Positions 3,069 through 57,889 of a stretch of DNA of 64,000 bases are shown here, piece after piece. The notes under the pieces were generated by a model that did no database searches, was not told the DNA's origin, and saw only the letters and a list, made by a program, of their open reading frames with translations. The translations under genes and the position numbers were made by a program. The stretch is from Candidatus Gottesmanbacteria bacterium. Lineage in GTDB: Bacteria; Patescibacteriota; Microgenomatia; UBA10105; UBA927. Positions within the stretch are counted from its first letter, which is position 1. Each line of letters begins with the position of its first letter. The stretch covers positions 57,051 to 121,050 of the forward strand of contig CAIJMI010000005.1 in the NCBI GenBank assembly GCA_903821745.1. The letters are read 5' to 3'.

Positions 3069-4481
<1,413 letters not shown>

Positions 4482-4489
4482 TAGGGTTT

Positions 4490-4921
4490 ATGGATACAAT
4501 GCATCTTTCAATTGTTACGCCACAGCGGGAAGCATTTAGTCAGGACGTGAATTTCGTGACTGTATCAACCCCAAATGGCACAATTGGTATTTTGCCAAAT
4601 CATGTTTCACTGGTCACAGCACTTGTTGAAGGAGAAATTAAGGTGACGGCCGGTGGGAAGGAGTCGTATTTTGCAATTGGTGGCGGTTTTATGCAGGTCA
4701 CCAAAAAGTCAGTTATCATTTTAGTATCACGCGCCGTACATGCAGATGAGCTGAATGAGGCGGAAATTAAAAAAGCACAGGAAAGCGCAAAAATGGATGT
4801 GAAACAAAAAGGTGCAGGGATTGAACGATCAGAAGCGCTTGCAATTTTGCGTCGTTCATCGCTTGAATTGAAGGTTTTACGACACAAAAAGCGACGAAGC
4901 GGTATGCCTAATGCACTATGA
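4490..4921 (+). CDS. atpC: ATP synthase F1 subunit epsilon
   Basis: Last gene of the operon at 143 aa, with a beta-sandwich N-terminus and helical C-terminus pattern. Confidence 0.75.
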   Translation: MDTMHLSIVTPQREAFSQDVNFVTVSTPNGTIGILPNHVSLVTALVEGEIKVTAGGKESYFAIGGGFMQVTKKSVIILVSRAVHADELNEAEIKKAQESAKMDVKQKGAGIERSEALAILRRSSLELKVLRHKKRRSGMPNAL

Positions 4922-5559
4922 AGCAGTTGCGGCTAAAAAATATAACGCTTGTTCAACATCCACTTATCGATCATTCCTTAACTGTTCTTCGTGATACACA
5001 TTGTTCTACAGCAGATTTTAGACAACATTCAGGAATTGTGTCACAAATTCTTATTCTTGAAGCAACCAAAAATCTTCACGTGGTGAATAAGACAATTCAA
5101 ACACCGCTTGCAAAAATGATAGGAAAACGGCTAAAAAATGACGTTGTTGTTGTTCCCGTTCTACGGTCCGGACTTGCGATGCTTATGGAACTGCAAGATT
5201 TTCTTCCATCCACGCGCGTTGGATTTATTGGGTTACATCGTGATGAAAAAACCGCGCAGGCACATCAGTATTATGAAAAATTACCGAAAATTTTTGCATC
5301 GCACAAGGTTTTTCTTATTGATCCGATGCTTGCAACAGGCGGCTCTCTCATTGCATCCATGAATATGCTTCGGGAAAAAGGTGCAAAAAATATTACGATC
5401 GTTTGCATTGTATCAGCACCAGAAGGGATTTCAGAAATTAACAAAGCGTATCCGGATGTACATATATATACTGCCGCGATAGATAAGCATTTAAATACGC
5501 AAAAATTTATTGTTCCGGGACTGGGTGATTTTGGCGATCGGTATTTTGGAACTATTTAA
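4918..5559 (+). CDS. upp: uracil phosphoribosyltransferase
   Basis: 213 aa. N-terminus ...VQHPLIDHSLTVLRD... and the PRPP-binding region ...FLIDPMLATGGSLIA... are typical of UPRTase. Its start overlaps the atpC stop (ATGA). Confidence 0.85.
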   Translation: MKQLRLKNITLVQHPLIDHSLTVLRDTHCSTADFRQHSGIVSQILILEATKNLHVVNKTIQTPLAKMIGKRLKNDVVVVPVLRSGLAMLMELQDFLPSTRVGFIGLHRDEKTAQAHQYYEKLPKIFASHKVFLIDPMLATGGSLIASMNMLREKGAKNITIVCIVSAPEGISEINKAYPDVHIYTAAIDKHLNTQKFIVPGLGDFGDRYFGTI

Positions 5560-7788: not shown

Positions 7789-8184
7789 ATGGCGAATCAA
7801 ACACACTGGAATACAACAATTCTTCATATCGGCGACACGATTCGTGTTCACTACAAATTAATTGAACATGAAAAGGTTTCCGGTAAAACAAAACGTGAAG
7901 TGAAAGATGAAACACGGGAACGTGTTCAGGTTTTTGAAGGAATCCTTATCGCCATTAAAAACGGACAAGAAAATCAAATGATCACCGTTCGCAAGATTGG
8001 AGTTGGAGCCATCGGAATTGAACGTATTTTCCCAATTATCTCTCCATGGATTAAAAAAATTGAAGTCAAAAAGCACGGCGATGTCCGTCGTGCAAAATTG
8101 TATTATCTTCGTGGTCGAAAGGGCCGAGCTGCGACAAAAATTAATGAGGCGGCTATAAAAGAAAAGCCGGAAATAAAAGGCTAA
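7789..8184 (+). CDS. rplS: 50S ribosomal protein L19
   Basis: ...GDTIRVHYKLIEHEKVSGKTKREVKDETRERVQVFEGILIAIKNGQ...ITVRKIGVGAIGIERIFPIISP... is characteristic of L19; 131 aa. Confidence 0.9.
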   Translation: MANQTHWNTTILHIGDTIRVHYKLIEHEKVSGKTKREVKDETRERVQVFEGILIAIKNGQENQMITVRKIGVGAIGIERIFPIISPWIKKIEVKKHGDVRRAKLYYLRGRKGRAATKINEAAIKEKPEIKG

Positions 8185-8443
8185 TTGTTTAATTCAGATC
8201 CTGCTTATGAGAATTTAATTTCTCAAACCTCTGTTTCATCTCCTATATTCAGGTTAAAGTCTGCAAAAAAATTATCAAAAATATGTTTGTGATCCTCAAT
8301 TCGCTTGTCTCGTCACCCATTCGAGAATGGCAAGGCGTTACCTGTGACCGATAGCATCATTTTCGTCGCAAAAAGATAGAAAAAAAGTATTGACAACCTG
8401 AAGCATATATGAAATGCTGAATCTAACTGAGGAGGAATGAATT

Positions 8444-9466
8444 ATGGCTTTTCTCAAAAAATCAAAACAGATCTCACCGTCGAAGATTCTTCTTTTTGTC
8501 CTCCTTTTTGGTTTTGGTATTTTTGCCATCTATTTGTTGTCATACAAAAATAGATTGAACTTGGATTTCCGTTCAAGAGCTGGGACGACCGTCGCTGTCA
8601 TAAAATCGTGGGATTTTGCAACAGATGGCAATACGGAAGGGTGGAACGCAACCAACATGACAGGGTTTACGACAAAATCAGGGCTTCTTGATGGAGTTGT
8701 AGGAGGAGATACGACAGGCTTAACGACAAAAGAAGTGAAAATACCATTTATAGCAAACACTGCAGTGGCATTGTCGACCAAAGAAAATGTCCGGTACGCA
8801 TTTGGGAATAAAAGCATTAAAATCCGTATGGCAGTAACTACTGGAATTTGTAGAGGTACAGCATATGTACAAGAAGAAGGACAGGAATCGAGTCTTCCGC
8901 GATGTCCAGGTGGAAACGATCCAATCACTTTTCCGTTTGAAATCAGTGTTATTACACCGCTTCGGGCTGCTGAATTTGATAAAACATTTCAAAAAGTGGT
9001 CGGCGACGGCGTGATGCATGAGTATGAATTCATTATTCCGGAATCGTTACCGATCACATCTATCCAAGGTATTTCAATAAAGTTTACGGGCCTTATGGGG
9101 AAAGCTGGCTCGGTCGTGAAAATTGATTATATTCAGGTGGTGGCAAGACAATTTATAAAACCAACACCAAAACCGGAGCCAGGCGCGTGCGGATTAAAAA
9201 ACAACGGGTGTTCCGGTTCCTGTACCTCAGGATCTACATGTAAGTTGGTGACACAGGGTGGAACAGCAGCTTGTACGTGTGTAACCAATCCCATACCAAA
9301 AGCTACCAAACCAGTCGTCGATTGTACATGGAAAGGCGCTAAATGTAGTGGTTCATGTGGGACAGGATCTACGTGTATACAAAGCGGGACAAACTCATGT
9401 AGCTGCCGAAATCTAAACCTAACCCCAACAAAAAGAATACCTACACCAATAACACGGTGGCAGTAA
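8444..9466 (+). CDS. membrane-anchored or secreted hypothetical protein with two C-terminal Cys-rich (EGF-like) repeats
   Basis: An N-terminal TM/signal helix (ILLFVLLFGFGIFAIYLL) is followed by a ~230-aa beta-rich region. It ends with two tandem modules of the form C-x4-5-C-SGSC-x-SGSTC...C.C (GACGLKNNGCSGSCTSGSTCKLV...CTCV and CTWKGAKCSGSCGTGSTCIQ...CSC). A strong SD (GAGGAGG) sits 8 nt upstream. Confidence 0.6.
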   Translation: MAFLKKSKQISPSKILLFVLLFGFGIFAIYLLSYKNRLNLDFRSRAGTTVAVIKSWDFATDGNTEGWNATNMTGFTTKSGLLDGVVGGDTTGLTTKEVKIPFIANTAVALSTKENVRYAFGNKSIKIRMAVTTGICRGTAYVQEEGQESSLPRCPGGNDPITFPFEISVITPLRAAEFDKTFQKVVGDGVMHEYEFIIPESLPITSIQGISIKFTGLMGKAGSVVKIDYIQVVARQFIKPTPKPEPGACGLKNNGCSGSCTSGSTCKLVTQGGTAACTCVTNPIPKATKPVVDCTWKGAKCSGSCGTGSTCIQSGTNSCSCRNLNLTPTKRIPTPITRWQ

Positions 9467-9604
9467 CAATAAGATAGGTTTTAGGGAGAGTGGATATTTA
9501 TAGTGAACAGCCTAGCAATCTGCATGTTTTGAAAAGGAAAATTTGTTTTAGTTCTATGCCCCCGGGCTAGCTTATGCGATAACTAAACAAATTGCAGATA
9601 CCTC

Positions 9605-9853
9605 TCAAGAATCTGACTCTTCACCCCTAGCTTTAGCGGCTTTTTCCTCTGCTAGTTCTTGAACAATTTTTTTGAGGTCGATACCATGCCTTAATGCTTG
9701 TCTTACAAAGGCATCTGCATTTAGGTCGCTAATTGGTTCTGGTTTACTTGGAGTTGCCTTTTTTTTAGATGCTTCAAATGCTCTTCGCTGTCTTTCTCTA
9801 AGCTCGGCAGCTCTAGAGTTATCTCTCATTATTTCTTTTTCTATATCGCTCAT
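9605..9853 (-). CDS. small charged hypothetical protein (82 aa)
   Basis: Intact ORF, Lys/Glu/Arg-rich, with no recognisable motif. It is convergent with the preceding gene. Confidence 0.35.
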   Translation of the reverse strand: MSDIEKEIMRDNSRAAELRERQRRAFEASKKKATPSKPEPISDLNADAFVRQALRHGIDLKKIVQELAEEKAAKARGEESDS

Positions 9854-14735: not shown

Positions 14736-15419
14736 TTACACAATTTGCAGTTTATTTGAATTAGTTTTTAACCACTTTATATATTGCTTATATGCAGGCT
14801 TATATGCAGCAACTATTTTCCAAAATTTCGGTCCGTGATTTTTTTCTTTTGTGTGGGAAAGTTCGTGGACAACAACATAATCAAGAACAAGGATTGGTGC
14901 CATCACAAGTCGCCAATTAAACTGTAATGCGTTATTCGGAGCACATGAACCCCATTTAGAACTGGTATCCGAATAGGTAATATTTTTATACGCGGTATTC
15001 ATAGCATTAGCATAAAAATTCACCCGTTCAGTTATAATTCGTTTCGCTTCTTTTACATACCAATTTGTTAATTCTACTTTTCCCCGGAATAGAAGATGTT
15101 TTGGATAATGAAGTTTTCCTTTATCTAAAGTAATTTGTCTGCCTAAATCAATCGTTACGACATAGGGATTACCAAGATAATAATAAATGTCACCGTCTTC
15201 AATCGCATGTTTAATTTTAAGTGGAAATTTTTGTGTTACTGCAACTTTTTTTTCTATCCATTCTTTTTTACTCTCGACAAACTGGTCAATGAGAAATTTT
15301 GGGAGTAGCGTTGGTGCTTTGACGACCACAGCACCGGTTGGTGCTATTTGGATAAGAATACTGCGTCGGTGAGACCGAAAAAGTTCGTACTTCATTTTTT
15401 CTTGTAACAAGCCCGACAA
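14736..15419 (-). CDS. YgjP-like (DUF45/WLM, M48-like) zinc metallohydrolase
   Basis: Contains the HExxH motif with downstream ...HGPKFW... (VVHELSHTKEKNHGPKFWKIV), characteristic of DUF45. Confidence 0.6.
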   Translation of the reverse strand: MSGLLQEKMKYELFRSHRRSILIQIAPTGAVVVKAPTLLPKFLIDQFVESKKEWIEKKVAVTQKFPLKIKHAIEDGDIYYYLGNPYVVTIDLGRQITLDKGKLHYPKHLLFRGKVELTNWYVKEAKRIITERVNFYANAMNTAYKNITYSDTSSKWGSCAPNNALQFNWRLVMAPILVLDYVVVHELSHTKEKNHGPKFWKIVAAYKPAYKQYIKWLKTNSNKLQIV

Positions 15420-15967
15420 CGCGCTACATAGACGTTGTCTGAAAATTTTGCAACGAGGGACGGATCAGTATGGAGTGCGTTAACAGTTTTTCCTTTGGTT
15501 ATTCGTTTATGAAAAACCGCGTCATTACCACATATGCTGCAAACTGAAGATAATTTTGTCACCTTATCAGCAATTGACATGAGTGTTGGCATAGGAGCAA
15601 ATGGTTGCCGATCAAACGTCATCGCAAGCCCTGCAACAATGACATGTTTTTTCTGTTGAAGCAATGTCTCCACAACTGGAACAAGCGCCTCCCCAAACCA
15701 TTGTGCTTCATCAATTGCGACTAAATCCGTATTTTTTGTTACAGTTTTGAGTATGTCTTTCGCGTGATGAATCAGTTCTGAGGCAAATGTCATCCCTGCA
15801 TGGCTATGGATTTCCTTTTCCTTTCCATAGCGAATATCAATGGCATGTTTAAAGACAACAACGTGTTTCTTGCCAATAGTTGCACGTTTTACTTGTCGGA
15901 TGAGTTCTTCTGTTTTGCCGCAGTACATAGGACCTGCAATGACTTCTAGATATCCGATACGGTTCAT
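15392..15967 (-). CDS. tdk: thymidine kinase
   Basis: P-loop GPMYCGKTEEL, ...VIAGLAMTFDRQPF..., and a C-terminal zinc ribbon C..C...C..C; 191 aa. Confidence 0.9.
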   Translation of the reverse strand: MNRIGYLEVIAGPMYCGKTEELIRQVKRATIGKKHVVVFKHAIDIRYGKEKEIHSHAGMTFASELIHHAKDILKTVTKNTDLVAIDEAQWFGEALVPVVETLLQQKKHVIVAGLAMTFDRQPFAPMPTLMSIADKVTKLSSVCSICGNDAVFHKRITKGKTVNALHTDPSLVAKFSDNVYVARCRACYKKK

Positions 15968-16335
15968 ATGAGACAGATACTACGGCATGAATCTTGTCTG
16001 CGCAAGAGGACGCAACGGTTTCGGGTTTTATTGATATAGTTCTATCTATTTTATCATCTTGTTAGGATTCATTTTCGGGTTTAGTATGAATATATGGCAG
16101 ATAGAATTGATGAATCAGTTACGGTTGCAACAGCTCTTCTAAGTAAAACCATCGTACCGGAACGTGTGGAATGGAGACATCATACCTATATTTGTACGCG
16201 ATGCACGATGCAGTATACCAGCATGGACGGTCAAACACTGCTCCATGTGTTTTTTATGACAACAAAAGAAGCATGTATGCAGATAGTGTTAAACACACGA
16301 TCACTGCGATGGACATTACAGGCAATTGAGACACT

Positions 16336-17604
16336 ATGATACGCCAATTTACTGCGCATTTACCAACAGTGCTCTATATAGACATTAACTCCTGTTTTGC
16401 AACCATTGAACAACAAGCGCATCCAAAATATCAAGGAAAACCGCTTGTGATTGCAGCGTATGAAACAGAAAACGGTGTTATTTTAGCAGCATCATATGAA
16501 GCGAAACGGTGTGGTGTGCAAACGGGGATGCGGATTTCCGAGGGCAAAAGACTATGTCCGGCCCTTCTTGTCACCGTACCGGATCCAGAAAAATATCGGT
16601 TCGTTAATACCCGTCTTACCGAACTTGTTTCATCCTATTCATCACACATACAAGTCCAATCAATCGATGAAATGATCGTCCGCATGGATGAAACACCGTA
16701 TCTTACAGGGTACACGAATACTGAAAAAGTGGTAGTTGATCGAATGCGGTATTTGGGAATGGAAATAAAAAAACGGATTCGGGAAGAAATAGGTGATCGT
16801 ATAACGGTATCTATCGGTATTGCACCCAACGCATTTTTGGCAAAAACAGCGTCAAATTTAAAAAAACCGGATGGACTGGAAGAAATAATTGCAAGCAATA
16901 TTATTCGTGTTCTAGATTCTTTGCAACTTACGGATTTATGCGGAATAAAAAAGGGGAACGGTAGGCGATTGCTGGCACATGGTATTACGACCCCTCGTAT
17001 GATGTTTGAATCCCCACCTGAGGCAGTAGAACGGGCATTTGGGTCAATCACGGGTCGATATTGGTGGTTATGGCTTCATGGATTTGAAATCGGATCTATT
17101 TATGCAGAAAAACAAAACGAAGAACGAAAAAGTTATAGTCAATCGTCATCGCTTCAGTGTCCGACTATTCCCAGTGATACCAATGCCATACAAGTTATCT
17201 ACCAGTTAGTGGCAAAAATGACTGGTCGGCTTCGAGAAGATGGATGCAGTACTGGTGGTGTTATGGCAGGATGTGCATTTAGAGACGGAACCTATTGGCA
17301 AAAACGGAAAAAATTGACAACGAAAAAGTATGCAACAGAAGATATATTTGAGGTAATCCGGAAACTCTTTTTTTATGCGCCCGCTAAACTGATTCATACG
17401 GTGTTTGTTGGCGTATATGATATTCATGCAGATTTATATTCCCAGTTAACGATGGATGAACAGGAACTCGAAAAACAGGCCCGTACAAAGGCAATAGACA
17501 GTATTTGTCATAAATTTGGGAGTCAGTCGATTACGTCAGGCATCGCAATGCAGGCAAAACAAATAATTGTTGACCGTATTGCGTTTGGAAAAGGTGCATT
17601 GTAA
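16336..17604 (+). CDS. dinB: Y-family DNA polymerase (DNA polymerase IV-like)
   Basis: N-terminus ...LYIDINSCFATIEQ...KPLVIAA..., ...SIDEMIV... and ...SIGIAPNAFLAKTAS... are typical of the ImpB/MucB/DinB family. Confidence 0.85.
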   Translation: MIRQFTAHLPTVLYIDINSCFATIEQQAHPKYQGKPLVIAAYETENGVILAASYEAKRCGVQTGMRISEGKRLCPALLVTVPDPEKYRFVNTRLTELVSSYSSHIQVQSIDEMIVRMDETPYLTGYTNTEKVVVDRMRYLGMEIKKRIREEIGDRITVSIGIAPNAFLAKTASNLKKPDGLEEIIASNIIRVLDSLQLTDLCGIKKGNGRRLLAHGITTPRMMFESPPEAVERAFGSITGRYWWLWLHGFEIGSIYAEKQNEERKSYSQSSSLQCPTIPSDTNAIQVIYQLVAKMTGRLREDGCSTGGVMAGCAFRDGTYWQKRKKLTTKKYATEDIFEVIRKLFFYAPAKLIHTVFVGVYDIHADLYSQLTMDEQELEKQARTKAIDSICHKFGSQSITSGIAMQAKQIIVDRIAFGKGAL

Positions 17605-30457: not shown

Positions 30458-31087
30458 TTAGGAGACAGAATAGCGGCGTATGACCCCGACCACACGTCCT
30501 TGTATTTTTACGTGGGTGGTAAAAATAGGAGACATGGTGGAATTAGCCGGCATCAGTTTGATTCGATCTTTTTCAAAATAAATGCGTTTAAGTGTCGCAA
30601 ATCCATTCGGAAGAAGGGCAACAACAATATCTCCATTCTTTGCGTCCTGTTGGTGCTGTACAACAACGTAATCTCCATCAAGGATTCCGTCATCAATCAT
30701 GGATGTTCCTTTGACCTGCAACACGTAATTAGCCTTTTCTTGGGAAATCATTCCTGGTGCAACAGCCATGTACTGATTAGGGTCTGTAAATGGCTCCAAT
30801 GGTTGCCCTGCGGCAATGTAGCCTAGGATTGGTAACTCTACTGCAGCTTCGGTTGACCCAACACGGTATTGCTCTTTGACTACTTCAATACCGCGAGCCG
30901 TACCATCAAGTTTTCTGACAAAGCCTTTATCTCGAAGACGGCTAATGTGTTCATGCACCGTTGCAACCGATCCAATACCGACAGATGCACCCATTTCTTT
31001 GAGTGTTGGTGCATACCCATACCGTTGAATGAATTGCGTGATAAACTCTAAGAGTTGACGTTCTTTCGGATATAATGTTGCAGTCAT
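30458..31087 (-). CDS. lexA: LexA repressor
   Basis: N-terminal wHTH (...LTPKERQLLEFI....GYAPTLKEMGASVGI...) and C-terminal S24 peptidase with catalytic Ser/Lys (...VKGTSMID.GI.DGDYVVV... and ...TLKR...). Confidence 0.9.
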   Translation of the reverse strand: MTATLYPKERQLLEFITQFIQRYGYAPTLKEMGASVGIGSVATVHEHISRLRDKGFVRKLDGTARGIEVVKEQYRVGSTEAAVELPILGYIAAGQPLEPFTDPNQYMAVAPGMISQEKANYVLQVKGTSMIDDGILDGDYVVVQHQQDAKNGDIVVALLPNGFATLKRIYFEKDRIKLMPANSTMSPIFTTHVKIQGRVVGVIRRYSVS

Positions 31088-31113
31088 ATATTAAATAAAA
31101 ACCGAATGTGTGT

Positions 31114-31130
31114 TACTATTAATGGTAGTA
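31114..31130. promoter_or_regulatory. candidate LexA operator (SOS box): palindrome TACTA-N7-TAGTA
   Basis: A perfect 5-7-5 inverted repeat, tactattaatggtagta, lies in the 125-bp divergent intergenic region between lexA (-) and uvrB (+). Confidence 0.5.
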
Positions 31131-31212
31131 TTTCATACAAAACACGAACCGTCAATAGTATTTATTATAAACAAACCGTATCAAATTTGACAAAGACCGA
31201 ACAGAAAACCAT

Positions 31213-33225
31213 ATGATTTCATTTTCACTTAAAAGCGATATGAAGCCAACCGGTGATCAACCAGAAGCAATTGACGCGCTTGTTAATCATTTGGAAAAAA
31301 ATTATAAAGATCTGGTGCTTGTTGGGGTAACTGGAAGTGGTAAAACCTTCACCATGGCAAACGTCATTGCAAAATTGCAACGTCCTACGCTCATCATTTC
31401 ACATAATAAAACATTAGCAGCCCAGTTATATCAGGAGTTTCGGGATTTCTTTCCAAAAAACGCTGTTTCCTATTTTGTTTCCTATTATGATTATTATCAG
31501 CCGGAGTCCTACATACCACAATCGGATACGTATATTGAAAAAGAAACGCAGATTAATGAAGAAATAGATAAACTGCGTTTAGCAGCCACCGCAAACATCC
31601 TTACTCGTCCAGATACGATTGTTGTTGCATCCGTCTCTTGTATTTATAACATTGGATCACCTCGTGAATACGGCAATTTTGCCCTTGAGCTAAAAACAGG
31701 AATGAAAATCCGTCGGGAAGACATTATTACCCGGCTGGTTGCACTCCAATATGAACGGAACATGTGGGAAGTAAAACGAGGGTACTTTCGGGTTCGTGGA
31801 GAAACAATTGATCTTTTTCCGGCGTACGAAGATCAACTTCTACGAATTGAAATCATAAACGATACACTCGTATCTCTATCCCATGTCGACCCGCTTACTG
31901 GAAATGTTGAAGATACACTACCTGCGGTAGTTATTTATCCTGCAAAACACTACATGACAGATCCAACGATGTATAAGGAGGTCCTTAAGGTAATTCAAGC
32001 GGATATGGAAAAACAGGTTGCCCTGTTTAAAAAACAAGGGAAACTTATTGAAGCACAGCGGATTCATGAACGGGTTACCCATGATTTGGAAATGCTGCAG
32101 GAAGTTGGCTATGTCAACGGAATTGAAAATTATTCTAGGTATTTTGACGGAAGAAAGCCGGGAGATCCACCCTACACACTTTTTGACTATTTTGAAGAAG
32201 CAACAAAAGGAAAACCGTGGCTTCTCTTTATTGATGAATCCCATATGACGATTCCACAAATTCGCGGCATGTACAATGGCGACCGGTCAAGAAAACAAAC
32301 GCTTATTGATTACGGATTCAGACTTCCCTCAGCCCTTGATAATCGGCCAATGGTATTTGATGAATTTTTACGGAAACGCCCACAAACCGTGTATGTTTCC
32401 GCAACTCCTGATGACTGGGAACTGACAAACGCAAAACACATTGTTGAACAATTGGTTCGTCCAACCGGCCTTATTGATCCTATTATCTCCATTCGTCCTG
32501 CCAAAGGACAAATTGCGGATTTAGAAAAGGAAATTACAAAGCGCATTGCGCTTCATGAACGCGTTATTGTTACAACACTAACAAAACAAATGGCTGAAGA
32601 TCTCACCGCGTATTTAAAACAAAAAGGCGTACTTGTTGAATATATTCACTCGGATATTGAAACGCTTGATCGGACAACAATTCTTGCCAATCTTCGGAAA
32701 GGCGCATTTGATGTCATTATTGGTGTGAACTTACTTCGCGAAGGCCTGGATTTACCAGAGGTGTCCTTGGTTGCCATTCTTGATGCAGACAAGGAAGGAT
32801 TTTTACGAAGTCGTGTTAGTTTAATTCAAACCATGGGTCGAGCAGCAAGGCATATTAAGGGAGAAGTTATTCTCTACGCTGATATGATGACAAAATCGAT
32901 TACTGCAGCAGTTGAAGAAGTAGAACGGCGGAAAAAAGTGCAGCTTGCATACAACAAAAAACATAATATTACGCCGACAACCATTCATAAGGCTATACGG
33001 TCAGGACTCATTGCAGAATGGAGCCAGCAGCATGAAGCCGCGGAAAAAATATATACCGACCTTGCAACATATACCGACAAAAAGGTTGAATCGATGACAG
33101 AACTTGACAAGCAAAAACTCATTCATAAAATGCGTATTCTGATGCAGAAGGCTTCTAAAAATTTGCAATTCGAAGAAGCTGCATCAATACGCGATTTTAT
33201 TGCATCACTTGCTGCAAAGAAGTAG
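31213..33225 (+). CDS. uvrB: excinuclease ABC subunit B
   Basis: ...GDQPEAIDAL..., helicase motifs GVTGSGKTFT and ...DESH...; 670 aa. Confidence 0.95.
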   Translation: MISFSLKSDMKPTGDQPEAIDALVNHLEKNYKDLVLVGVTGSGKTFTMANVIAKLQRPTLIISHNKTLAAQLYQEFRDFFPKNAVSYFVSYYDYYQPESYIPQSDTYIEKETQINEEIDKLRLAATANILTRPDTIVVASVSCIYNIGSPREYGNFALELKTGMKIRREDIITRLVALQYERNMWEVKRGYFRVRGETIDLFPAYEDQLLRIEIINDTLVSLSHVDPLTGNVEDTLPAVVIYPAKHYMTDPTMYKEVLKVIQADMEKQVALFKKQGKLIEAQRIHERVTHDLEMLQEVGYVNGIENYSRYFDGRKPGDPPYTLFDYFEEATKGKPWLLFIDESHMTIPQIRGMYNGDRSRKQTLIDYGFRLPSALDNRPMVFDEFLRKRPQTVYVSATPDDWELTNAKHIVEQLVRPTGLIDPIISIRPAKGQIADLEKEITKRIALHERVIVTTLTKQMAEDLTAYLKQKGVLVEYIHSDIETLDRTTILANLRKGAFDVIIGVNLLREGLDLPEVSLVAILDADKEGFLRSRVSLIQTMGRAARHIKGEVILYADMMTKSITAAVEEVERRKKVQLAYNKKHNITPTTIHKAIRSGLIAEWSQQHEAAEKIYTDLATYTDKKVESMTELDKQKLIHKMRILMQKASKNLQFEEAASIRDFIASLAAKK

Positions 33226-33292
33226 ATATGGAGTATAATATCTGTTGTGCCACGGGACCATCCGCGGTCAATTTGGTTGGGTGAAATAATAT

Positions 33293-36244
33293 ATGGACGA
33301 TCAAATCATCATATCAGGAGCACGGCAGCATAATTTAAAAAACATAAATTGTTTGCTGCCGAAAAAAAAAGTGGTTGTTTTTACTGGGGTATCAGGATCC
33401 GGTAAGTCATCGCTTGCGTTTGACACGATCTATGCTGAAGGCCAACGGCGGTATGTTGAGTCTCTCTCATCCTATGCCAGACAATTTTTAGGCATTATGG
33501 ATAAGCCGGATGTAGACAACATTATTGGCTTGTCACCTGCAATATCCATTGATCAAAAATCAACTTCTCACAATCCAAGATCAACCGTTGGCACAGTAAC
33601 GGAAATTTACGATTACCTACGGCTGCTGTTTGCAAGAATTGGTCATCCACATTGTCCAACGTGTGGGAGAGAAATTTCAAAACTTTCAACGGCGCAAATT
33701 GTTTCCATGGTACTTACTGAAACCCAATCGCAACTAACCGATACCACCAAAAAAACGGTGTTTCTCATGGTGCTTGCACCTCTTATTCGTGATAGGAAAG
33801 GCGAATATAGCGGCTTATTTGAGAACTTAAAAGCAAAAGGCTACAAAACAATTCGCGTCGATGGCATTTTTTATCCAATCGATGATGTTGTGGTTCTTAT
33901 AAAAACAAATAAACACACAATTGATGTTGTCGTTGATAAGGTGAGTATTGAAAAAAAGTCGTTCCGTGATGAAAAAATAAAACACACAATTACCAGCAGG
34001 CTTTCCGACAGTGTTGAACAAGCATTGGCTCTTTCAGGAGGATTGGTAACGATTTCACAGATTAAAGATACGGTATTTGCGTTCTCGGAACATCCAAAAA
34101 AGGTCAAAGATACCATATATTCAGAACATTTTTCCTGTCCAGTCTGTAACACGTCAATTTCTGAATTGGAACCTAGGATGTTTTCATTTAATTCTCCGCA
34201 TGGAGCATGTCCTGCGTGTGGCGGTATTGGTTTTGTATCAACGGTCGATTCGACGCTGATTATGAATCCGGAATTATCCATCAGTGAAGGCGGTATTTTA
34301 CCATTCTCTCGCATGTTTTTACATGACACTTGGTTTGCTCGAATTATAAAAACAGTTGCCGATGCGTACAATATTGATACACGAAAACCCATCGGCCAGC
34401 TGACAGCAAAACAACAAGAGATATTGCTGTACGGCACTGGTGAAACGATTCATGAAGTTGAAGGCACAAACCGATTTGGAGAATTTACAACAATACATGA
34501 GTCCTTTAACGGTTTTATTGCAGAGCTTAAAAAACGGCATCGGGAAACACAATCTTCGTATATGCGTGAGGAAATTGAAAAATTTATGCGCGAAGAAATA
34601 TGCGATCAATGTCATGGAACGAGGCTAAAAAAAGAAAGTCTTACAGTAACTATTGATGGATTTTCAATTGCGGATAGCACAGGGCTTTCTATTCAGGAAA
34701 CCATTCACTGGGTAGAACGTCTATCACACCAAACAAAATCCATGTTGAGTGCACGAGAAAAAATTATATCAGGACCAATTTTAAAAGAAATACGTATCCG
34801 GTTACAGTTTCTTCTTAATGTGGGACTCACGTATCTTACCCTTGCCCGCGGTGCATCAACATTATCTGGCGGCGAAGCACAGCGTATTCGACTTGCCTCT
34901 CAAATCGGTTCAGGACTTTCCGGAGTACTCTATGTGCTTGATGAACCGTCAATTGGACTACACCAACGGGATAACAGAAAACTCATTGATACACTGCACC
35001 ATCTTCGCAATTTAGGAAATACCGTCATTGTTGTTGAACATGACCGGGAAATGATGGAGTCTGCTGATCATATCGTTGATTTTGGACCAGGTGCAGGAGA
35101 ACATGGAGGAACAATTGTTGCTCAGGGTACGTTTGAAGAGATTCTTACATCAAAATCCCTGACCAGCCAGTATTTATCAAACAAAAAAACAATCACACGG
35201 ACACTTCGTCCATTTCTTTTTGATACGGTTGCCAAAAAAGAATCGGACAATGAACATCTTCGCATCATTGGCGCGACACATAATAATTTAAAAAATGTTA
35301 CAGCAACGATTCCACTTGGGAAATTGGTTTGTATTACCGGCGTCTCAGGAAGCGGAAAATCATCCCTTATTGTAGATACGTTATTTCCAGCGTTGCAGCA
35401 CCACTTTAATCCTGTATCAAAGGAAAAACCTGGACATTTTGAGAAAATTGAAGGTCTTGAAAAAATTGATAAAACGATTCTTATTGATCAATCACCAATT
35501 GGTAGAACTCCCCGAAGCAATCCTGCCACATATACCGGATTATTTACCTACATCCGTGATTTGTTTGCGATGATGCCTGACGCTAAAGCAAAAGGGTACA
35601 CAACAGGAAGGTTTTCATTTAACGTAAAAGGCGGTCGGTGCGAAGCATGTGAAGGTGAAGGACAAAAGCGTATTGAAATGCAATTTTTATCTGATGTCTT
35701 TGTTACCTGCGAAGTTTGTAAAGGAACCCGATATAACCAGGAGACGCTTGAGGTCCTGTATCACGAAAAAAATATAGCAGATGTCCTGCAGATGAGTGTT
35801 GACGAAGCAATCGGGTTTTTTCAACATCATTCAGGAATCCAGGAAAAACTCAAAACCATTCAGGATGTCGGTCTTGGATATATGAAATTAGGCCAACCCG
35901 CAACTACGCTTTCCGGTGGTGAAGCCCAGCGCGTGAAACTAGCAACAGAACTTTCGCGCCGTGCGACAGGAAAAACAGTCTACGTACTTGATGAACCAAC
36001 AACAGGGTTACACTTTGCGGATTTGGAAAAATTGTTACATGTGCTTGACCGTCTGACTGCTTATGGAAATACCGTTATCGTTATTGAACATAATTTGGAT
36101 ATAATAAAGAATGCAGACTGGATTATTGACATGGGTCCGGAAGGGGGAGACGAAGGGGGAAAAATAATTGCCGTCGGAACTCCTCTTGAAATAAGTAACA
36201 ATAGTGCATCTGCGACCGGACAATTTTTACAAACAGTGTTATGA
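33293..36244 (+). CDS. uvrA: excinuclease ABC subunit A
   Basis: Two ABC ATPase modules (GVSGSGKSSL twice; LSGGEAQR twice) with zinc-finger inserts; 983 aa. Confidence 0.95.
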   Translation: MDDQIIISGARQHNLKNINCLLPKKKVVVFTGVSGSGKSSLAFDTIYAEGQRRYVESLSSYARQFLGIMDKPDVDNIIGLSPAISIDQKSTSHNPRSTVGTVTEIYDYLRLLFARIGHPHCPTCGREISKLSTAQIVSMVLTETQSQLTDTTKKTVFLMVLAPLIRDRKGEYSGLFENLKAKGYKTIRVDGIFYPIDDVVVLIKTNKHTIDVVVDKVSIEKKSFRDEKIKHTITSRLSDSVEQALALSGGLVTISQIKDTVFAFSEHPKKVKDTIYSEHFSCPVCNTSISELEPRMFSFNSPHGACPACGGIGFVSTVDSTLIMNPELSISEGGILPFSRMFLHDTWFARIIKTVADAYNIDTRKPIGQLTAKQQEILLYGTGETIHEVEGTNRFGEFTTIHESFNGFIAELKKRHRETQSSYMREEIEKFMREEICDQCHGTRLKKESLTVTIDGFSIADSTGLSIQETIHWVERLSHQTKSMLSAREKIISGPILKEIRIRLQFLLNVGLTYLTLARGASTLSGGEAQRIRLASQIGSGLSGVLYVLDEPSIGLHQRDNRKLIDTLHHLRNLGNTVIVVEHDREMMESADHIVDFGPGAGEHGGTIVAQGTFEEILTSKSLTSQYLSNKKTITRTLRPFLFDTVAKKESDNEHLRIIGATHNNLKNVTATIPLGKLVCITGVSGSGKSSLIVDTLFPALQHHFNPVSKEKPGHFEKIEGLEKIDKTILIDQSPIGRTPRSNPATYTGLFTYIRDLFAMMPDAKAKGYTTGRFSFNVKGGRCEACEGEGQKRIEMQFLSDVFVTCEVCKGTRYNQETLEVLYHEKNIADVLQMSVDEAIGFFQHHSGIQEKLKTIQDVGLGYMKLGQPATTLSGGEAQRVKLATELSRRATGKTVYVLDEPTTGLHFADLEKLLHVLDRLTAYGNTVIVIEHNLDIIKNADWIIDMGPEGGDEGGKIIAVGTPLEISNNSASATGQFLQTVL

Positions 36245-38028
36245 AATTAAACATCATACGGTATATCCAATACATTTCTTGTATTGTTGTTTGTTGTTTC
36301 CTTCCTACATCCTTGAAAGCCGCTGATTTTATTGCGGATTATGATACGCAGTATGCGGTTTCTCCAAGCGGGACAACCATTGTTACACAAAACATAACGC
36401 TTACCAACAAGCAATCAAATTTATATCCCAAGCAATACGCAATCAGTATTGAAAGCGATAAAATCCATAATGTTATCGCCTATGACAAAAAAGGCGTCAT
36501 TACGCCTAAAATTACCCAAGGTGGAGGAAAAACACAGATCGTTGTCTTGTTTAATGAACAGGTTGTGGGACTCGACAAACAGCTCAACTTTTCACTTCGC
36601 TATGAAAACGGGGACATCGCAGAGCAGCTCGGAAATATATGGGAAATAAAAATTCCCGGAATAACGGAAGATGAAACGCTTGGAGAATATAACGTTTCTT
36701 TACAAACACCTTCCTCATTTCCACCAAATGCATATATGACACCACTTCCGGCAGTGGGCGGAAGGTGGATAAAAGCGCAGTTGATTAGCGGTGGTATTTA
36801 CGCAGGATACGGGGAATTTCAATCCTATATTGTGGAGGCAACGTATAATCTCGAAAATGATACGTTATCATCTAAACTAACAACCATTACGATTCCTGCA
36901 GATACTGCATATCAAACCGTCAGTATTATCAGTATGAATCCAAAGCCAAAAGAAATGAAAAAGGATGAGGACGGAAATTGGATAGCGAATTATGAACTTT
37001 CTTCCATGCAAAAAGTAGACGTGAATGCAAAACTCAATGTACAAACGTACAATAAAGCAAAAAAAACCATACAAACGGCACTTACGGATAAAACGGTTTA
37101 TCTTCAGCAGCAGCGGTATTGGGAAATCGGAGATACAAAAATTCAGTCACTAGCCAAACAATATACAACCCCTCGGGAAATATACGATTATGTTATAAGA
37201 ACGCTATCTTATACAAAAACAACCAACAAAGAATCCATACGAAAAGGTGCAGTTGGCGCACTTGCTGATCCGACAAACAGTGTATGTACGGAATTTACTG
37301 ATCTGTTTATTGCAATTGCGCGAGCAGCGGGTATTCCGGCACGCGAAGTGATTGGGTATGCATATACGACGGATGCAAAGCTGCGTCCATTGCTTACGGG
37401 ATCTGATGTTTTACATGCATGGCCAGAATATTACGATACAACAAAGCAGGTCTGGATACCAATTGACCCAACATGGGGGCATACCACAGGTGGAGTAAAC
37501 TATTTTGATGTGTTCGATTTTAATCATATTGCGTTCGTCGTACATGGAAAATCAAGTGAAACTCCCTATCCAGCAGGTTCCTACAAAGAAGGTTCCATAC
37601 CGAAAAAAAATGTGTCTGTTACATTTGCGCCAGTTATGAAAACCATCGTAAACAATAGTTTTAGAACTACTTTTTTACTACCAAAAAAAGTTTCAGCCGG
37701 CAAAAATCTTGTTGGATCAGTCCAGATAGAAAATTTAGGCAATACAACGTCAGAAAAAGTTGCGATTGTTATTGACGCAAACCCATTTTTGTTTCATACA
37801 GAAAAACAAGAAGAGAACATCCCTCCGTTTGGAATGATCACTCTTCCGATTTCTATATCCATTCCAAATTATCTCTCAAACGGAAAAGGCACGGTGAATG
37901 TTTCTGTGAATGGAGAAATAAATTCTTTTACCTATACGGTAACTCCCATGTATTGGCTCCTTATGCCAATAAGTATTATTTTTATCTGCCTGATTATTAT
38001 TCTATGGTTGATATTCAAAAAAAAGTAA
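36241..38028 (+). CDS. secreted/membrane transglutaminase-like (Cys-His-Asp papain-fold) domain protein
   Basis: Signal peptide, then a TGase core with ...NSVCTEFTDLFIAIARAAGIPAREVIGYA... (Cys), ...HAWPEYY... (His) and ...WIPIDPTWG... (Asp), and a C-terminal TM helix. Its start overlaps the uvrA stop (ATGA). Confidence 0.75.
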   Translation: MKLNIIRYIQYISCIVVCCFLPTSLKAADFIADYDTQYAVSPSGTTIVTQNITLTNKQSNLYPKQYAISIESDKIHNVIAYDKKGVITPKITQGGGKTQIVVLFNEQVVGLDKQLNFSLRYENGDIAEQLGNIWEIKIPGITEDETLGEYNVSLQTPSSFPPNAYMTPLPAVGGRWIKAQLISGGIYAGYGEFQSYIVEATYNLENDTLSSKLTTITIPADTAYQTVSIISMNPKPKEMKKDEDGNWIANYELSSMQKVDVNAKLNVQTYNKAKKTIQTALTDKTVYLQQQRYWEIGDTKIQSLAKQYTTPREIYDYVIRTLSYTKTTNKESIRKGAVGALADPTNSVCTEFTDLFIAIARAAGIPAREVIGYAYTTDAKLRPLLTGSDVLHAWPEYYDTTKQVWIPIDPTWGHTTGGVNYFDVFDFNHIAFVVHGKSSETPYPAGSYKEGSIPKKNVSVTFAPVMKTIVNNSFRTTFLLPKKVSAGKNLVGSVQIENLGNTTSEKVAIVIDANPFLFHTEKQEENIPPFGMITLPISISIPNYLSNGKGTVNVSVNGEINSFTYTVTPMYWLLMPISIIFICLIIILWLIFKKK

Positions 38029-39326
38029 GCGAACTTCCCACAACTCCTGGCGTCTATCTCTATAAAGATGCTTCTGACACAATCATTTACGTCGGAAAAG
38101 CCGTCAATCTGAGACGACGGGTAAAACAATATTTTGAAAAAGGGCACACCTTATCACCAAAGACGGAACAACTTGTTTCCACTATTGCAGATTTGGACCA
38201 TAAGGATACAGTAACCGAGTTTGATGCATTGCTTCTTGAATCCAATCTTATTCGAACGTACCAACCAAAGTACAACATGATTGCAAAGGACGATAAAAGC
38301 CCAATTTACATCCATGTGTCACTGGAAGACAACTTACCACGCATTCAACTTACAAGAAAACCGAAGTCACCAGAAAAACATACATTTTACGCAGGACCAT
38401 TCCAATCAACGCGTGTTGCAAAATCCATTCTTCGATCAATACGGCGTTGTATTCCATATTGCACCCAAAAACAACGAACGGGCAAACCTTGTTTCTATAC
38501 CCATATCAACCTTTGTTCTCCGTGCCCATCAGAAATAGTAAAAATGCCTGAAGGACAACCAAAACAGCTGTTAATTCAACAGTACCGAAAAAATATTTTT
38601 AAAATTAAACGTATTTTGGAAGGCAATATTTTACCGGTTGCAAACGATCTTGAACAAGAAATGAACGAAGAAGCAAAAAATAATCATTTCGAACAAGCAG
38701 CACAACTTCGAGACCGAATAATTGCGCTCCAGCAGTTATTACTGACACATTTTGATCCTTCATTATATCTTGATGATGCAGTTACCATCGGCGAAACTGT
38801 TGAACAGGAGCTTAAAGATCTTCGAAGCATTCTGATAACTGCATACCCAACAATGCAACAGCTACAAAAAATTGAATGCGTTGATATTTCCAATAATGCA
38901 GGCACTGATCCCGTGGGATCTCTCGTCGTCATGGAACACGGCATTATAGACAGGTCACAATACCGGAGATTTGCAATTCGGGATATTGTAGGTTCAAATG
39001 ATACTGCGATGATTAATCAAGTTGTAGAACGGAGGCTAAAACATAAGGAATGGTCATTGCCAGATCTTCTCGTGATTGATGGCGGGAAGGGGCAAGTGAA
39101 AGCCGCAGAACAAGCAATAAAACGAAGCGCAGTCTCAATTCCTATTATTGGTCTTGCAAAAAAATATGAATCCATCGTTATGCCTGTTGATGGAATTTGG
39201 AAGCTTTTGCATCTTGCAAGTACCCGTCCAGCTATTCAACTTCTCAAGCGAATTCGCGATGAGTCACATCGCTTCGCGATTGGCTATCACCGATTAAAAC
39301 GAGCCAAAACATGGAACGAATCGTAA
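38004..39326 (+). CDS. uvrC: excinuclease ABC subunit C (short form lacking C-terminal HhH2)
   Basis: GIY-YIG domain (...PGVYLYKDASDTIIYVGKAVNLRRRVKQYF...), UvrB-interacting region and RNase H-like endonuclease domain. It is ~440 aa and ends before any helix-hairpin-helix pair. I placed the start at the ATG at 38004; the ORF-track start is at 37953. Confidence 0.85.
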   Translation: MVDIQKKVSELPTTPGVYLYKDASDTIIYVGKAVNLRRRVKQYFEKGHTLSPKTEQLVSTIADLDHKDTVTEFDALLLESNLIRTYQPKYNMIAKDDKSPIYIHVSLEDNLPRIQLTRKPKSPEKHTFYAGPFQSTRVAKSILRSIRRCIPYCTQKQRTGKPCFYTHINLCSPCPSEIVKMPEGQPKQLLIQQYRKNIFKIKRILEGNILPVANDLEQEMNEEAKNNHFEQAAQLRDRIIALQQLLLTHFDPSLYLDDAVTIGETVEQELKDLRSILITAYPTMQQLQKIECVDISNNAGTDPVGSLVVMEHGIIDRSQYRRFAIRDIVGSNDTAMINQVVERRLKHKEWSLPDLLVIDGGKGQVKAAEQAIKRSAVSIPIIGLAKKYESIVMPVDGIWKLLHLASTRPAIQLLKRIRDESHRFAIGYHRLKRAKTWNES

Positions 39327-51511: not shown

Positions 51512-51518
51512 TTACAAG

Positions 51519-51600
51519 TGCCTCCGAGAGGATTTGAACCTCTAAGGGTTGCCCCATATGCTCCTGAAGCATACGCGTCTACCAATTGCGCCACGGAGGC
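51519..51600 (-). tRNA. tRNA-Leu (anticodon CAG), long variable arm
   Basis: The reverse complement GCCTCCGTGGCGCAATTGGTAGACGCGTATGCTTCAGGAGCATATGGGGCAACCCTTAGAGGTTCAAATCCTCTCGGAGGCA has anticodon loop TTCAGGA. Confidence 0.85.
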
Positions 51601-51661
51601 TCCGCGACTACCAAAAATTATAACACACAAACATTTTATCCCTATAGTACAATACAGATGT

Positions 51662-52561
51662 ATGAAGAACGAATGGAAAAAACTCCCTGAAGCATTCTTA
51701 GATCGATTGGAACAAATCGTACCGAAAGATGCAGTAAAAAGGATACTGCATGCGTATACGGTGCAACGAAAAACGACCATTCGGGTTAATACCTTAAAAA
51801 CAACAACCGAAGAACTCTTAACTATATTTAAAGAGCACCATATTATTTATAAACCATCTGACATCTCGCCAATTGCATTTATTATTCAAAATGAAAAGCG
51901 GGATCTTCTTGATCTTGATGCGTATACTAAAGGTCTGTTCTATATTCAAAGCCTCTCAAGTCAACTCCCAGCACTTGCTCTTGATCCAAAGCCAAACGAG
52001 AAAATTCTTGATATCGCAGCAGCGCCAGGGAGCAAAACTACACAAATTGCAGCCATCATGAATAATACCGGTGAAATTGTTGCAAACGACAACAGTAGAA
52101 TCAGAGGATATAAATTAGAAGCAAATCTTAAAACTCAAGGCGTAACAAATACTAAAATAGGTATATCGGCAGGACAAACACTCTGGCAAATATATCCGGA
52201 ATATTTTGACCGCGCACTTGTTGATGCTCCTTGCAGTATGGAAGGAACTTTTACTACAACAAACCCAAAAACGTATGAGCATTGGTCTGTCAAAGAGAAC
52301 AAAGAATTAGTACAGAGACAAAAATGGTTACTCCGATCAGCAATCAGTGCAACAAAACCAGGAGGGATTATTGTCTACTCAACGTGCACACTTGAACCAT
52401 CAGAAAATGAACAGGTTATTGAATGGATATTGAAAAAAGAGAAAGGGCATATTGAACTAGCAAAACCAATGTCTCATATCTATCCGTCTGAAACCATGGA
52501 AGGATTTTTTGTTGCAACCCTTAAAAAAACTTCGTCAACCATCCCTTCGGTACTGCTCTAG
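51662..52561 (+). CDS. 16S rRNA m5C methyltransferase, RsmB/RsmF (NOL1/NOP2/Sun) family
   Basis: SAM-binding ...LDIAAAPGSKTTQIA... and catalytic ...DAPCSMEGT...YSTCTLEP... motifs. I placed the start at the ATG at 51662 because the ORF-track start at 51518 overlaps tRNA-Leu. Confidence 0.8.
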   Translation: MKNEWKKLPEAFLDRLEQIVPKDAVKRILHAYTVQRKTTIRVNTLKTTTEELLTIFKEHHIIYKPSDISPIAFIIQNEKRDLLDLDAYTKGLFYIQSLSSQLPALALDPKPNEKILDIAAAPGSKTTQIAAIMNNTGEIVANDNSRIRGYKLEANLKTQGVTNTKIGISAGQTLWQIYPEYFDRALVDAPCSMEGTFTTTNPKTYEHWSVKENKELVQRQKWLLRSAISATKPGGIIVYSTCTLEPSENEQVIEWILKKEKGHIELAKPMSHIYPSETMEGFFVATLKKTSSTIPSVLL

Positions 52562-57286: not shown

Positions 57287-57337
57287 ATGCTTCACGAACA
57301 AGCAAAAGTACGATATACTCAAAGGTGGAAAACCAAT

Positions 57338-57416
57338 GGTGACTGTAGCTCAGCCCGGTTAGAGCGCCTCCCTGTGGAGGAGGATGTCGAGGGTCCGAAT
57401 CCCTTCAGTCACCCCA
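57338..57416 (+). tRNA. tRNA-His (anticodon GTG) with genome-encoded G-1 and CCA
   Basis: G-GTGACTGTAGCTCAGCCCGGTTAGAGCGCCTCCCTGTGGAGGAGGATGTCGAGGGTCCGAATCCCTTCAGTCAC-C-CCA has an extra 5' G pairing with C73 (the His identity element) and anticodon loop CTGTGGA. Confidence 0.85.
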
Positions 57417-57889
57417 TGAACGATAAAGACTTTTTGAAATTAGCAGTTGAACAAGCAAAAAAATCCGTTGAAATGGGAGGATTTCCTGCTGGTGCAGTCA
57501 TTGTCAAAAATGGACAAGTAATAGCAGAAGGAATCAGTCTTGGATACACGCTTCATGATCCCACAGAACATGCAGAAACGTCCGCGATCAAGAAAGCCTG
57601 CAAAACGATTGGCTCTTCCAATTTAGAAGGCGCCACTCTCTATGAATCCTTGGAATGTTGCACCATGTGTTTTTCGGTGAGCAATTGGGCAGGAATTTCA
57701 AGAATCGTCTATGCCTGTAGAAAAACACCGGATATGGTGAACAAACAATACTATGAAGGCATGACCAAAAACGAAGATATAAACGCTACGAACAACAATA
57801 AAATAGACCTTGTATTCATTCCTGAATTTGAACAAGAATGTTTAGATATGGTAAAAGACTGGGAACAAAAACAAACAAAAGCCTCCTAA
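57416..57889 (+). CDS. CMP/dCMP-type zinc deaminase (TadA/nucleoside deaminase-like)
   Basis: Zinc motifs ...HAETSAI... (H-A-E) and ...ECCTMC... (PC..C-like) ~30 aa apart. The ATG start (57416-57418) shares its A with the terminal A of the tRNA-His CCA; the ORF-track start at 57287 would run through the tRNA. Confidence 0.7.
   Translation: MNDKDFLKLAVEQAKKSVEMGGFPAGAVIVKNGQVIAEGISLGYTLHDPTEHAETSAIKKACKTIGSSNLEGATLYESLECCTMCFSVSNWAGISRIVYACRKTPDMVNKQYYEGMTKNEDINATNNNKIDLVFIPEFEQECLDMVKDWEQKQTKAS

Follow-up and report, generated by a model that had tools for sequence, protein, structure and literature searches.

The stretch of DNA analyzed here (64,000 nucleotides of contig CAIJMI010000005.1 from a Candidatus Gottesmanbacteria bacterium, hereafter the window) carries a gene for the repressor LexA and, divergent from it, the four genes uvrB, uvrA, a transglutaminase-like gene and uvrC (Table 1). 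An original prediction, made from the letters of the window, had described a compact locus of the SOS response and of nucleotide excision repair (NER), in which lexA and the uvr unit would share a single palindromic operator. The gene arrangement was confirmed by domain hits, all uvr genes lying on the + strand, and the compact SOS/NER locus was supported by the conservation of this arrangement across Gottesmanbacteria. The operator is likely of another kind: in place of one shared site, we found three separate, phased TTCGG boxes, one on the uvrB side and two on the lexA side. It is likely that the locus is the centre of an SOS regulon of conventional type under LexA, with an oriented direct repeat, TTCGG-N6-TTYGG, of 11-bp period as its predicted operator.

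The LexA Gene and the lexA/uvrB Spacer

Judged by its domains and key residues, the open reading frame (ORF) at 30458-31087 is a canonical LexA repressor. Both expected domains were found (LexA_DNA_bind, PF01726, 1.5e-15; Peptidase_S24, PF00717, 1.1e-28), and the score against TIGR00498 was 183 bits for a cut-off of 111 bits. The recognition helix of the winged helix-turn-helix motif, SVATVHEHI, occupies residues 40-48. Alignment to solved LexA structures showed that the cleavage site Ala93-Gly94 (IAAGQP) is intact, as is the catalytic dyad composed of Ser129 (KGTSM) and Lys167 (TLKR). LexA homologues with 75-94% identity bear the names Gottesmanbacteria, Microgenomates or Patescibacteria, in agreement with an origin of the window in this lineage. 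The spacer between lexA and uvrB is AT-rich and measures 125 nt (31088-31212). The order uvrB-uvrA-transglutaminase-uvrC-(holin_4_2-like)-cofD-secG, divergent from lexA, is kept in relatives with 76% and 93% identical LexA.

Table 1. Genes and sequence elements of the lexA/uvrB and tdk/orf81-dinB regions, numbered from the first letter of the window.
Feature	Position	Strand	Remarks
lexA	30458-31087	-	Identified by Pfam, TIGR00498, PDB LexA alignments and residue positions
Box C, TTCGGTTTTTATTTAA	31091-31106	-	lexA 5' leader; ends 3 nt before lexA ATG, 42 nt from box B
Palindrome TACTA-N7-TAGTA, TACTATTAATGGTAGTA	31114-31130		Covers the lexA promoter from -10 to about +6
lexA extended -10, TGAAATACT	31127-31135	-	Hexamer AATACT at 31127-31132, upstream TG
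Box B, TTCGTGTTTTGTATGA	31133-31148	-	TTCGT variant; takes up the lexA promoter between -35 and -10
lexA -35 hexamer, TTGACG	31150-31155	-	Promoter scan
TATCAA (TTGATA on the - strand)	31179-31184	+	Conserved in the site-A logo; also precedes tdk next to box D1
Box A, TTCGGTCTTTGTCAAA	31186-31201	-	Predicted uvrB-unit operator; 11 nt upstream of uvrB ATG, at 53 nt from box B
uvrB	31213-33225	+	Divergent from lexA at almost every locus of Gottesmanbacteria
uvrA	33293-36244	+	67-nt gap after uvrB
Transglutaminase-like gene (Transglut_core)	36241-38028	+	N-terminal signal peptide, C-terminal membrane anchor
uvrC	38004-39326	+	440 aa; GIY-YIG, UVR and RNase H-like endonuclease domain, no (HhH)2
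tdk (thymidine kinase)	15392-15967	-	Divergent from orf81-dinB
Box D1, TTCGGGTTTTATTGAT	16020-16035	+	Adjoins the tdk-side TATCAA; conserved in L075 and L078
Box D2, TTCGGGTTTAGTATGA	16074-16089	+	17.0 bits; within the orf81-dinB promoter (spacer and -10 region); kept in L075, L076 and L078
orf81	16094-16339	+	Conserved, 81 aa; stop overlaps dinB ATG
dinB (Y-family DNA polymerase IV)	16336-17604	+	Profile annotation

TTCGG Boxes Upstream of lexA

The lexA comparison set comprised 74 loci (designated L001 onward) from contigs chosen as one genome per species; about 58 of them were Gottesmanbacteria-like, with LexA proteins 63-94% identical. When 5-mers were counted de novo in the 130 nt upstream of each of 55 Gottesmanbacteria lexA genes, the top word was TTCGG, observed 111 times for 8.6 expected and present in 51 of the 55 regions, with a single occurrence of its reverse complement. 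Counted by strand, the orientation bias was 129 vs 3. The logo built from these sites, TTCGGKTWWWTTTYGG, reads TTCGG-K-T-W-W-W-T-T-T-Y-G-G, its second half, TTYGG, being weaker and placed exactly 11 nt after the first TTCGG. Most Gottesmanbacteria have this TTYGG second half, and a perfect TTCGG second half is found in distant relatives. The distances from box to box were 42 nt (26 cases), 53/54 nt (21) and 11 nt (6), all of them whole helical turns.

A standard layout emerges from these promoters. Just downstream of a conserved TATCAA comes box A, at a distance of 1-11 nt from the start codon of the gene divergent from lexA; it is held near that codon in about 30 genomes. Box B, 53/54 nt further on, sits between the -35 element TTGAC and the extended -10 element TGGAATACT; the sequence TTGAC-NN-TTCGG is conserved in 51 promoters, and TGGAATACT in 51 site-B alignments. 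Box C follows 42 nt beyond box B, in the lexA leader. Boxes B and C overlap the -35/-10 spacer and the leader of lexA in 51 of the 55 relatives. Boxes A and B are kept even at locus L080, where the transglutaminase-like gene, and not uvrB, is divergent from lexA.

The window follows this layout. A promoter scan placed the lexA promoter at TTGACG-17-AATACT with an upstream TG, box B occupying its spacer. Box C is the best match in the window to the position weight matrix (PWM) of the box (17.5 bits), and its 42-nt distance from box B recurs in 26 related promoters. On the other side of the spacer, the TATCAA next to box A is a candidate for the -10 element of the uvrB promoter. Intergenic TTCGG occurs in only two places in the 64 kb, twice in the lexA/uvrB spacer and twice in the tdk/orf81-dinB spacer. 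We also searched the logo for an inverted left half-site of the Cheo type beside TTCGG; none was present (positions -10 to -6).

As a side observation, two relatives carry insertions of roughly 130-250 nt between an SOS promoter and the start codon, one in the lexA leader of L045 (about 3830-3998) and the other in the dinB leader of L078 (about 2615-2860). The terminal inverted repeats at the ends of the two are similar, CCAGGTAGTGAAAACTCGAT...ATCGAGTTTCTACTACCTGG and CCACGTAGTAGAATTTCGAC...GTCGAAATTTCACTACATGG, and they look like members of a family of miniature inverted-repeat transposable elements.

Direct Repeats at Distant lexA Loci

At lexA loci whose LexA is only 36-47% identical, the promoter contains a clean TTCGG-N6-TTCGG, usually between the -35 and -10 elements. 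This repeat was found in other Patescibacteria (L059, L060 and L074, in reverse in L069, and as the variant TTTGG-N6-TTCGG in L062), and in lexA loci of Gemmatimonadota (L061, L063 and L065-L072), whose LexA proteins are 37-46% identical; in L065-L072, it sits between TTGACT and TAATCT. Across all the loci compared, exact TTCGG-N6-TTCGG repeats occur almost only at lexA promoters. All these LexA proteins have in common the recognition helix S[V/P]ATVHEHI, those of Gemmatimonadota included (SVATVHEHI). The box follows the repressor gene across two phyla and therefore fits an autoregulatory operator.

The single-cell genome of Patescibacteria at L060 shows a second perfect box, TTCGGTATTTGTTCGG (2583-2598), just after lexA. 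It precedes a hydrophobic ORF of about 43 codons (about 2632-2760), which may code for a small membrane protein induced by the SOS response, for instance a toxin or an inhibitor of division.

The tdk/orf81-dinB Region

The original prediction implied that dinB has no operator, since the palindrome it proposed is missing there. Two conserved TTCGG boxes nevertheless lie in the promoter region of orf81-dinB. Boxes D1 and D2 are 54 nt apart, D2 ending 4 nt before the orf81 ATG, and this 54-nt pair is kept in L075 and L078, two of the metagenomic relatives used for the dinB comparison, with DinB about 60% identical. Because these two boxes precede orf81-dinB, dinB is included in the predicted regulon. 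The promoter of orf81 looks leaderless, the ATG lying about 7 nt after the -10 element TAGTAT.

No Pfam or NCBIfam family matched orf81. Its homologues in three metagenomic relatives are of the same length, 81 aa, align free of gaps with 38-52% identity, and share the C-terminal motif ...ACMQI.LNT.TLRWTL..IE. On the tdk side, the geometry is the same as that of uvrB and box A, with box D1 just downstream of TATCAA. From this resemblance, tdk may be an additional member of the regulon through box D1, and damage-inducible in this lineage.

Pfam annotation covered about 45 of the roughly 60 ORFs of the window; the remaining annotated genes are housekeeping ones, including ATP synthase, glycolysis, metK and rarA. 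The tRNA genes at 57339-57413 (+ strand) and 51519-51600 (- strand) overlap the long ORF 57287-57889 and the first codons of the ORF 51518-52561, respectively, so that the starts or calls of these two ORFs are probably wrong.

The uvr Genes and the Transglutaminase-Like Gene

The overlap of ATGA type announced between uvrA and the transglutaminase-like gene is present at 36241-36244. The maximal ORF of uvrC begins at 37953; its start is likely the ATG at 38004, which gives a protein of 440 aa and an overlap of 25 nt with the transglutaminase-like gene. UvrC scored 325 bits against TIGR00194 (cut-off 285 bits), with the GIY-YIG domain, the UVR motif and the RNase H-like domain all present. It had also been stated that this UvrC lacks the C-terminal (HhH)2 domain, and indeed the protein stops right after the RNase H-like domain, with no HhH match. 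The UvrC proteins of relatives are 439-442 aa long and likewise devoid of (HhH)2 (L082, 1822-3150; L084, 1770-3089), so the loss is a trait of the lineage, and not a truncation or an assembly artefact. No TTCGG box was found in the 67-nt gap between uvrB and uvrA, and no convincing terminator between the co-directional genes from uvrB to uvrC.

The position of the transglutaminase-like gene is conserved in L082-L084. At the L080 site, from which uvrB, uvrA and uvrC are absent, it is directly divergent from lexA (8039-9838). We considered that its product could be a bacterial analogue of Rad4/XPC, a damage sensor with a transglutaminase fold; this was rejected, as the signal peptide and the C-terminal membrane anchor indicate an extracytoplasmic protein. 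It is probably a cell-surface protein that rides in the operon, and not a repair factor.

Predicted Control of the Locus by LexA

We infer the box model for this locus from comparative genomics, with LexA as the protein that would bind to the boxes. In the window, each box would consist of a strong first half-site and a degenerate second one, and boxes A, B and C would lie on one face of the helix, the A-B distance of 53 nt making five turns and the B-C distance of 42 nt making four. LexA dimers on boxes B and C would block the lexA promoter (autorepression), LexA on box A would block the uvrB-uvrA-transglutaminase-uvrC unit, and the bound repressor would in this way occlude RNA polymerase at both divergent promoters. 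Boxes D1 and D2 would act likewise at orf81-dinB, and perhaps at tdk. The phasing by four and five turns suggests that LexA molecules make cooperative contacts. Upon DNA damage, filaments of RecA on single-stranded DNA would trigger the self-cleavage of LexA at Ala93-Gly94 by means of Ser129 and Lys167, and the genes would be derepressed.

Several observations weigh against control of the locus by LexA through these boxes. A consensus promoter scan of the + strand of the spacer found no uvrB promoter. The second half-sites in the window are poor, with one or two of five positions matching TTCGG, and the core of box B is itself TTCGT. Also, the second half of box B overlaps the TG of the extended -10 element, and part of the conservation of this box may come from the promoter. 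The single-box PWM is weakly specific, giving 35 hits of at least 9 bits vs about 18 in shuffles; because the PWM alone is too unspecific, the box calls rest on intergenic location, orientation, phasing and conservation across genomes. Away from the SOS promoters, the strongest box-like sequence is TTCGGTAATTTTTCATAATACT, a 17-bit hit lying antisense (5273-5291, - strand) within upp (4918-5559, + strand); its second half is TTCAT, followed by a -10-like TAATACT, and it may be due to chance or be part of an antisense promoter. The 3' end of uvrB holds a promoter-like site, TTGACA-16-TAAAAT (33104-33131, + strand, 11/12 match), located about 160 nt before the uvrA ATG and with no TTCGG box near it. 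This site could start transcription from uvrA onward independently of LexA, and because of it the extent of the uvr operon is given here as predicted. Finally, no RecA signature was found in the 64-kb window or in any fetched locus.

Alternative Readings of the Boxes

The boxes could be real cis-elements that are read by a factor other than LexA, namely a second repressor, a nucleoid protein or an alternative sigma factor, for which they would be promoter-proximal elements of damage-response genes. The assignment of LexA to the boxes by sequence comparison leaves room for such a factor, to which the fixed distance between box B and the -35 hexamer that it abuts would also be suited, as would the strict orientation of the boxes and their resemblance, in this genome, to single half-sites rather than dimer sites. 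However, no -35/-10 frame encloses boxes A, C and D1, and the repeat tracks the promoter of lexA itself across two phyla sharing the LexA helix, which is the signature of autoregulation. Its period of 11 also matches a known mode of LexA binding, the direct repeat GTTC-N7-GTTC of Alphaproteobacteria, and the LexA motif of Patescibacteria is cited as a direct repeat. We therefore regard another reader of the boxes as unlikely.

The second alternative restricts LexA control to lexA and dinB, the genes from uvrB onward being constitutive and box A only strengthening the autoregulation of lexA by cooperative contacts. It would account for the failure to define a uvrB promoter, for the orientation of box A, which is that of lexA and not of uvrB, and for the 11/12 promoter-like site before uvrA. 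Against it, about 30 genomes keep box A within 1-11 nt of the divergent start codon regardless of the gene concerned, which in L080 is the transglutaminase-like one, and the same box geometry recurs at tdk. Moreover, LexA acts on both uvrA and uvrB in E. coli and B. subtilis. Constitutive expression from uvrB onward thus appears very improbable, and control by LexA at both lexA and the uvrB unit is retained here as the preferred interpretation.

The TACTA-N7-TAGTA Palindrome

The palindrome TACTATTAATGGTAGTA on which the original prediction was built is present at 31114-31130 and its dyad is exact, in the classic position of a repressor site on the lexA promoter. It had been described as the only strong palindrome of the spacer; the 125 nt in fact contain three perfect 5+5 palindromes. 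In shuffles of this spacer, at least one perfect 5+5 palindrome was obtained in 85% of cases (mean 2.5), and 17% carried one with a spacer of exactly 7, so that such dyads are expected by chance. When one mismatch was allowed, TACTA-N7-TAGTA matched three times in the whole window for 1.0 expected; no second exact copy was found anywhere in the 64 kb. The region upstream of dinB has none, as had been stated.

Among relatives, the palindrome is retained only in the four closest (L001-L004), whose LexA is at least 88% identical and in which the length of its spacer varies. It is absent from the other 70 of the 74 lexA loci, and such an absence from related lexA/uvr promoters had been named with the original prediction as grounds for refuting it; variants of TACTA/TAGTA with another spacer were found nowhere else among the 74. 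Yet the LexA recognition helix is the same, S[V/P]ATVHEHI, in genomes with and without the palindrome, and because it is the same throughout, a private operator for the subclade of the window is not expected. Palindromes are not enriched in the segment from -10 to +25 either, with 14 of 36 promoters observed vs 11.7 expected. On the lexA strand, the TACTA arm is simply the -10 element AATACTA, the TAGTA arm overlapping the extended -10 hexamer. In other genomes the TAGTA position reads TCGTA, TCCTA or TCATA, from which this arm could be one substitution away. Also, about 85 nt separate the palindrome from the start of uvrB, which is instead adjoined by a dedicated conserved box.

We judge from these comparisons that the palindrome is a chance or lineage-local dyad, not a LexA box, and that it results from the -10 box together with a substitution that arose locally where transcription begins. 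That it is a lineage-specific LexA box, serving as the one operator through which lexA and the uvrBA-x-uvrC unit are both repressed, is scarcely credible in view of its chance-level occurrence, its absence at dinB and its overlap with the -10. Part of the underlying idea nevertheless held: the predicted LexA box of this lineage is neither CTGT-N8-ACAG nor the Cheo box, but the palindrome is not that box.

Two other candidates were rejected. The view of the palindrome as a hairpin in RNA, or as an RNA element already known, was discarded, since only half of it would be transcribed and the Rfam matches in the window were limited to tRNAs. On either side of the lexA promoter, 31114-31126 and 31148-31160 form a longer inverted repeat, which is not conserved in relatives.

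Significance and Comparison With Known SOS Systems

This analysis corrects a plausible-looking assignment of a palindromic operator and gives a testable five-box map of SOS control in an uncultured lineage of the Candidate Phyla Radiation with reduced genomes. Its general significance is modest, as repression of lexA, uvrA/uvrB and dinB by LexA is textbook regulon logic and a direct-repeat LexA motif of Patescibacteria is already in the literature. It also provides small leads on the evolution of LexA motifs, namely phased half-sites across divergent promoters, a possible SOS control of tdk, and a small protein coupled to DinB.

A broader scenario may be put forward, which we consider less likely than not. 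The operator of Gottesmanbacteria would have decayed from a TTCGG-N6-TTCGG dimer site to single strong half-sites phased at 42 and 53/54 bp, which would need a higher-order assembly of LexA, cooperative or looped, coupling both promoters of lexA/uvrB and of dinB/tdk. The regulon would then include tdk, the transglutaminase-like protein and orf81, and the presence of the same LexA type and box in Gemmatimonadota would suggest either that they are ancient or that they were transferred between phyla.

A close known system is the SOS network of Patescibacteria, which belongs to the same superphylum and has the same regulator. The study of this network is cited as a case of direct-repeat recognition by LexA (Sanchez-Osuna, Barbe & Erill, Environ Microbiol 2017; 19:3465). 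As far as the consensus can be compared through this citing description, TTCGG-N6-TTCGG agrees with the cited type, and the form found here in Gottesmanbacteria has a degenerate second half-site and a set of three boxes, with phased distances of 42 and 53/54 nt between them. Like the box of Alphaproteobacteria, the direct repeat GTTC-N7-GTTC, the box has an 11-bp period and a TTC core, but its half-site is TTCGG with no conserved 5' G. According to the citing text, direct-repeat recognition by LexA in Alphaproteobacteria and in Patescibacteria has independent origins.

There are also similarities with the Cheo box of Firmicutes and Actinobacteria, GAAC-N4-GTTC, whose right half GTTCG resembles (G/A)TTCGG, and the boxes overlap lexA, uvrB and dinB promoters as the Cheo boxes of B. 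subtilis do. Unlike the Cheo box, the repeat is direct and not palindromic, with no inverted left half at the required distance. As in the SOS systems of E. coli and B. subtilis, an autoregulated LexA is predicted to repress NER genes and a Y-family polymerase. The locus differs from theirs by the clustering of lexA, uvrB, uvrA and uvrC with a surface transglutaminase-like gene inside, by a UvrC devoid of (HhH)2, and by an 81-aa ORF of no known family in front of dinB.

Cooperative binding of LexA to tandem sites, one strong and the other degenerate, is documented in lexA promoters of Verrucomicrobia and in colicin promoters. The lexA promoter described here resembles them in having multiple predicted LexA sites of which only one element is well conserved. 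In contrast with those tandem sites, which are 1-10 bp apart, the boxes of the window are separated by 42 and 53/54 bp, in helical phase, and are distributed over two divergent promoters.

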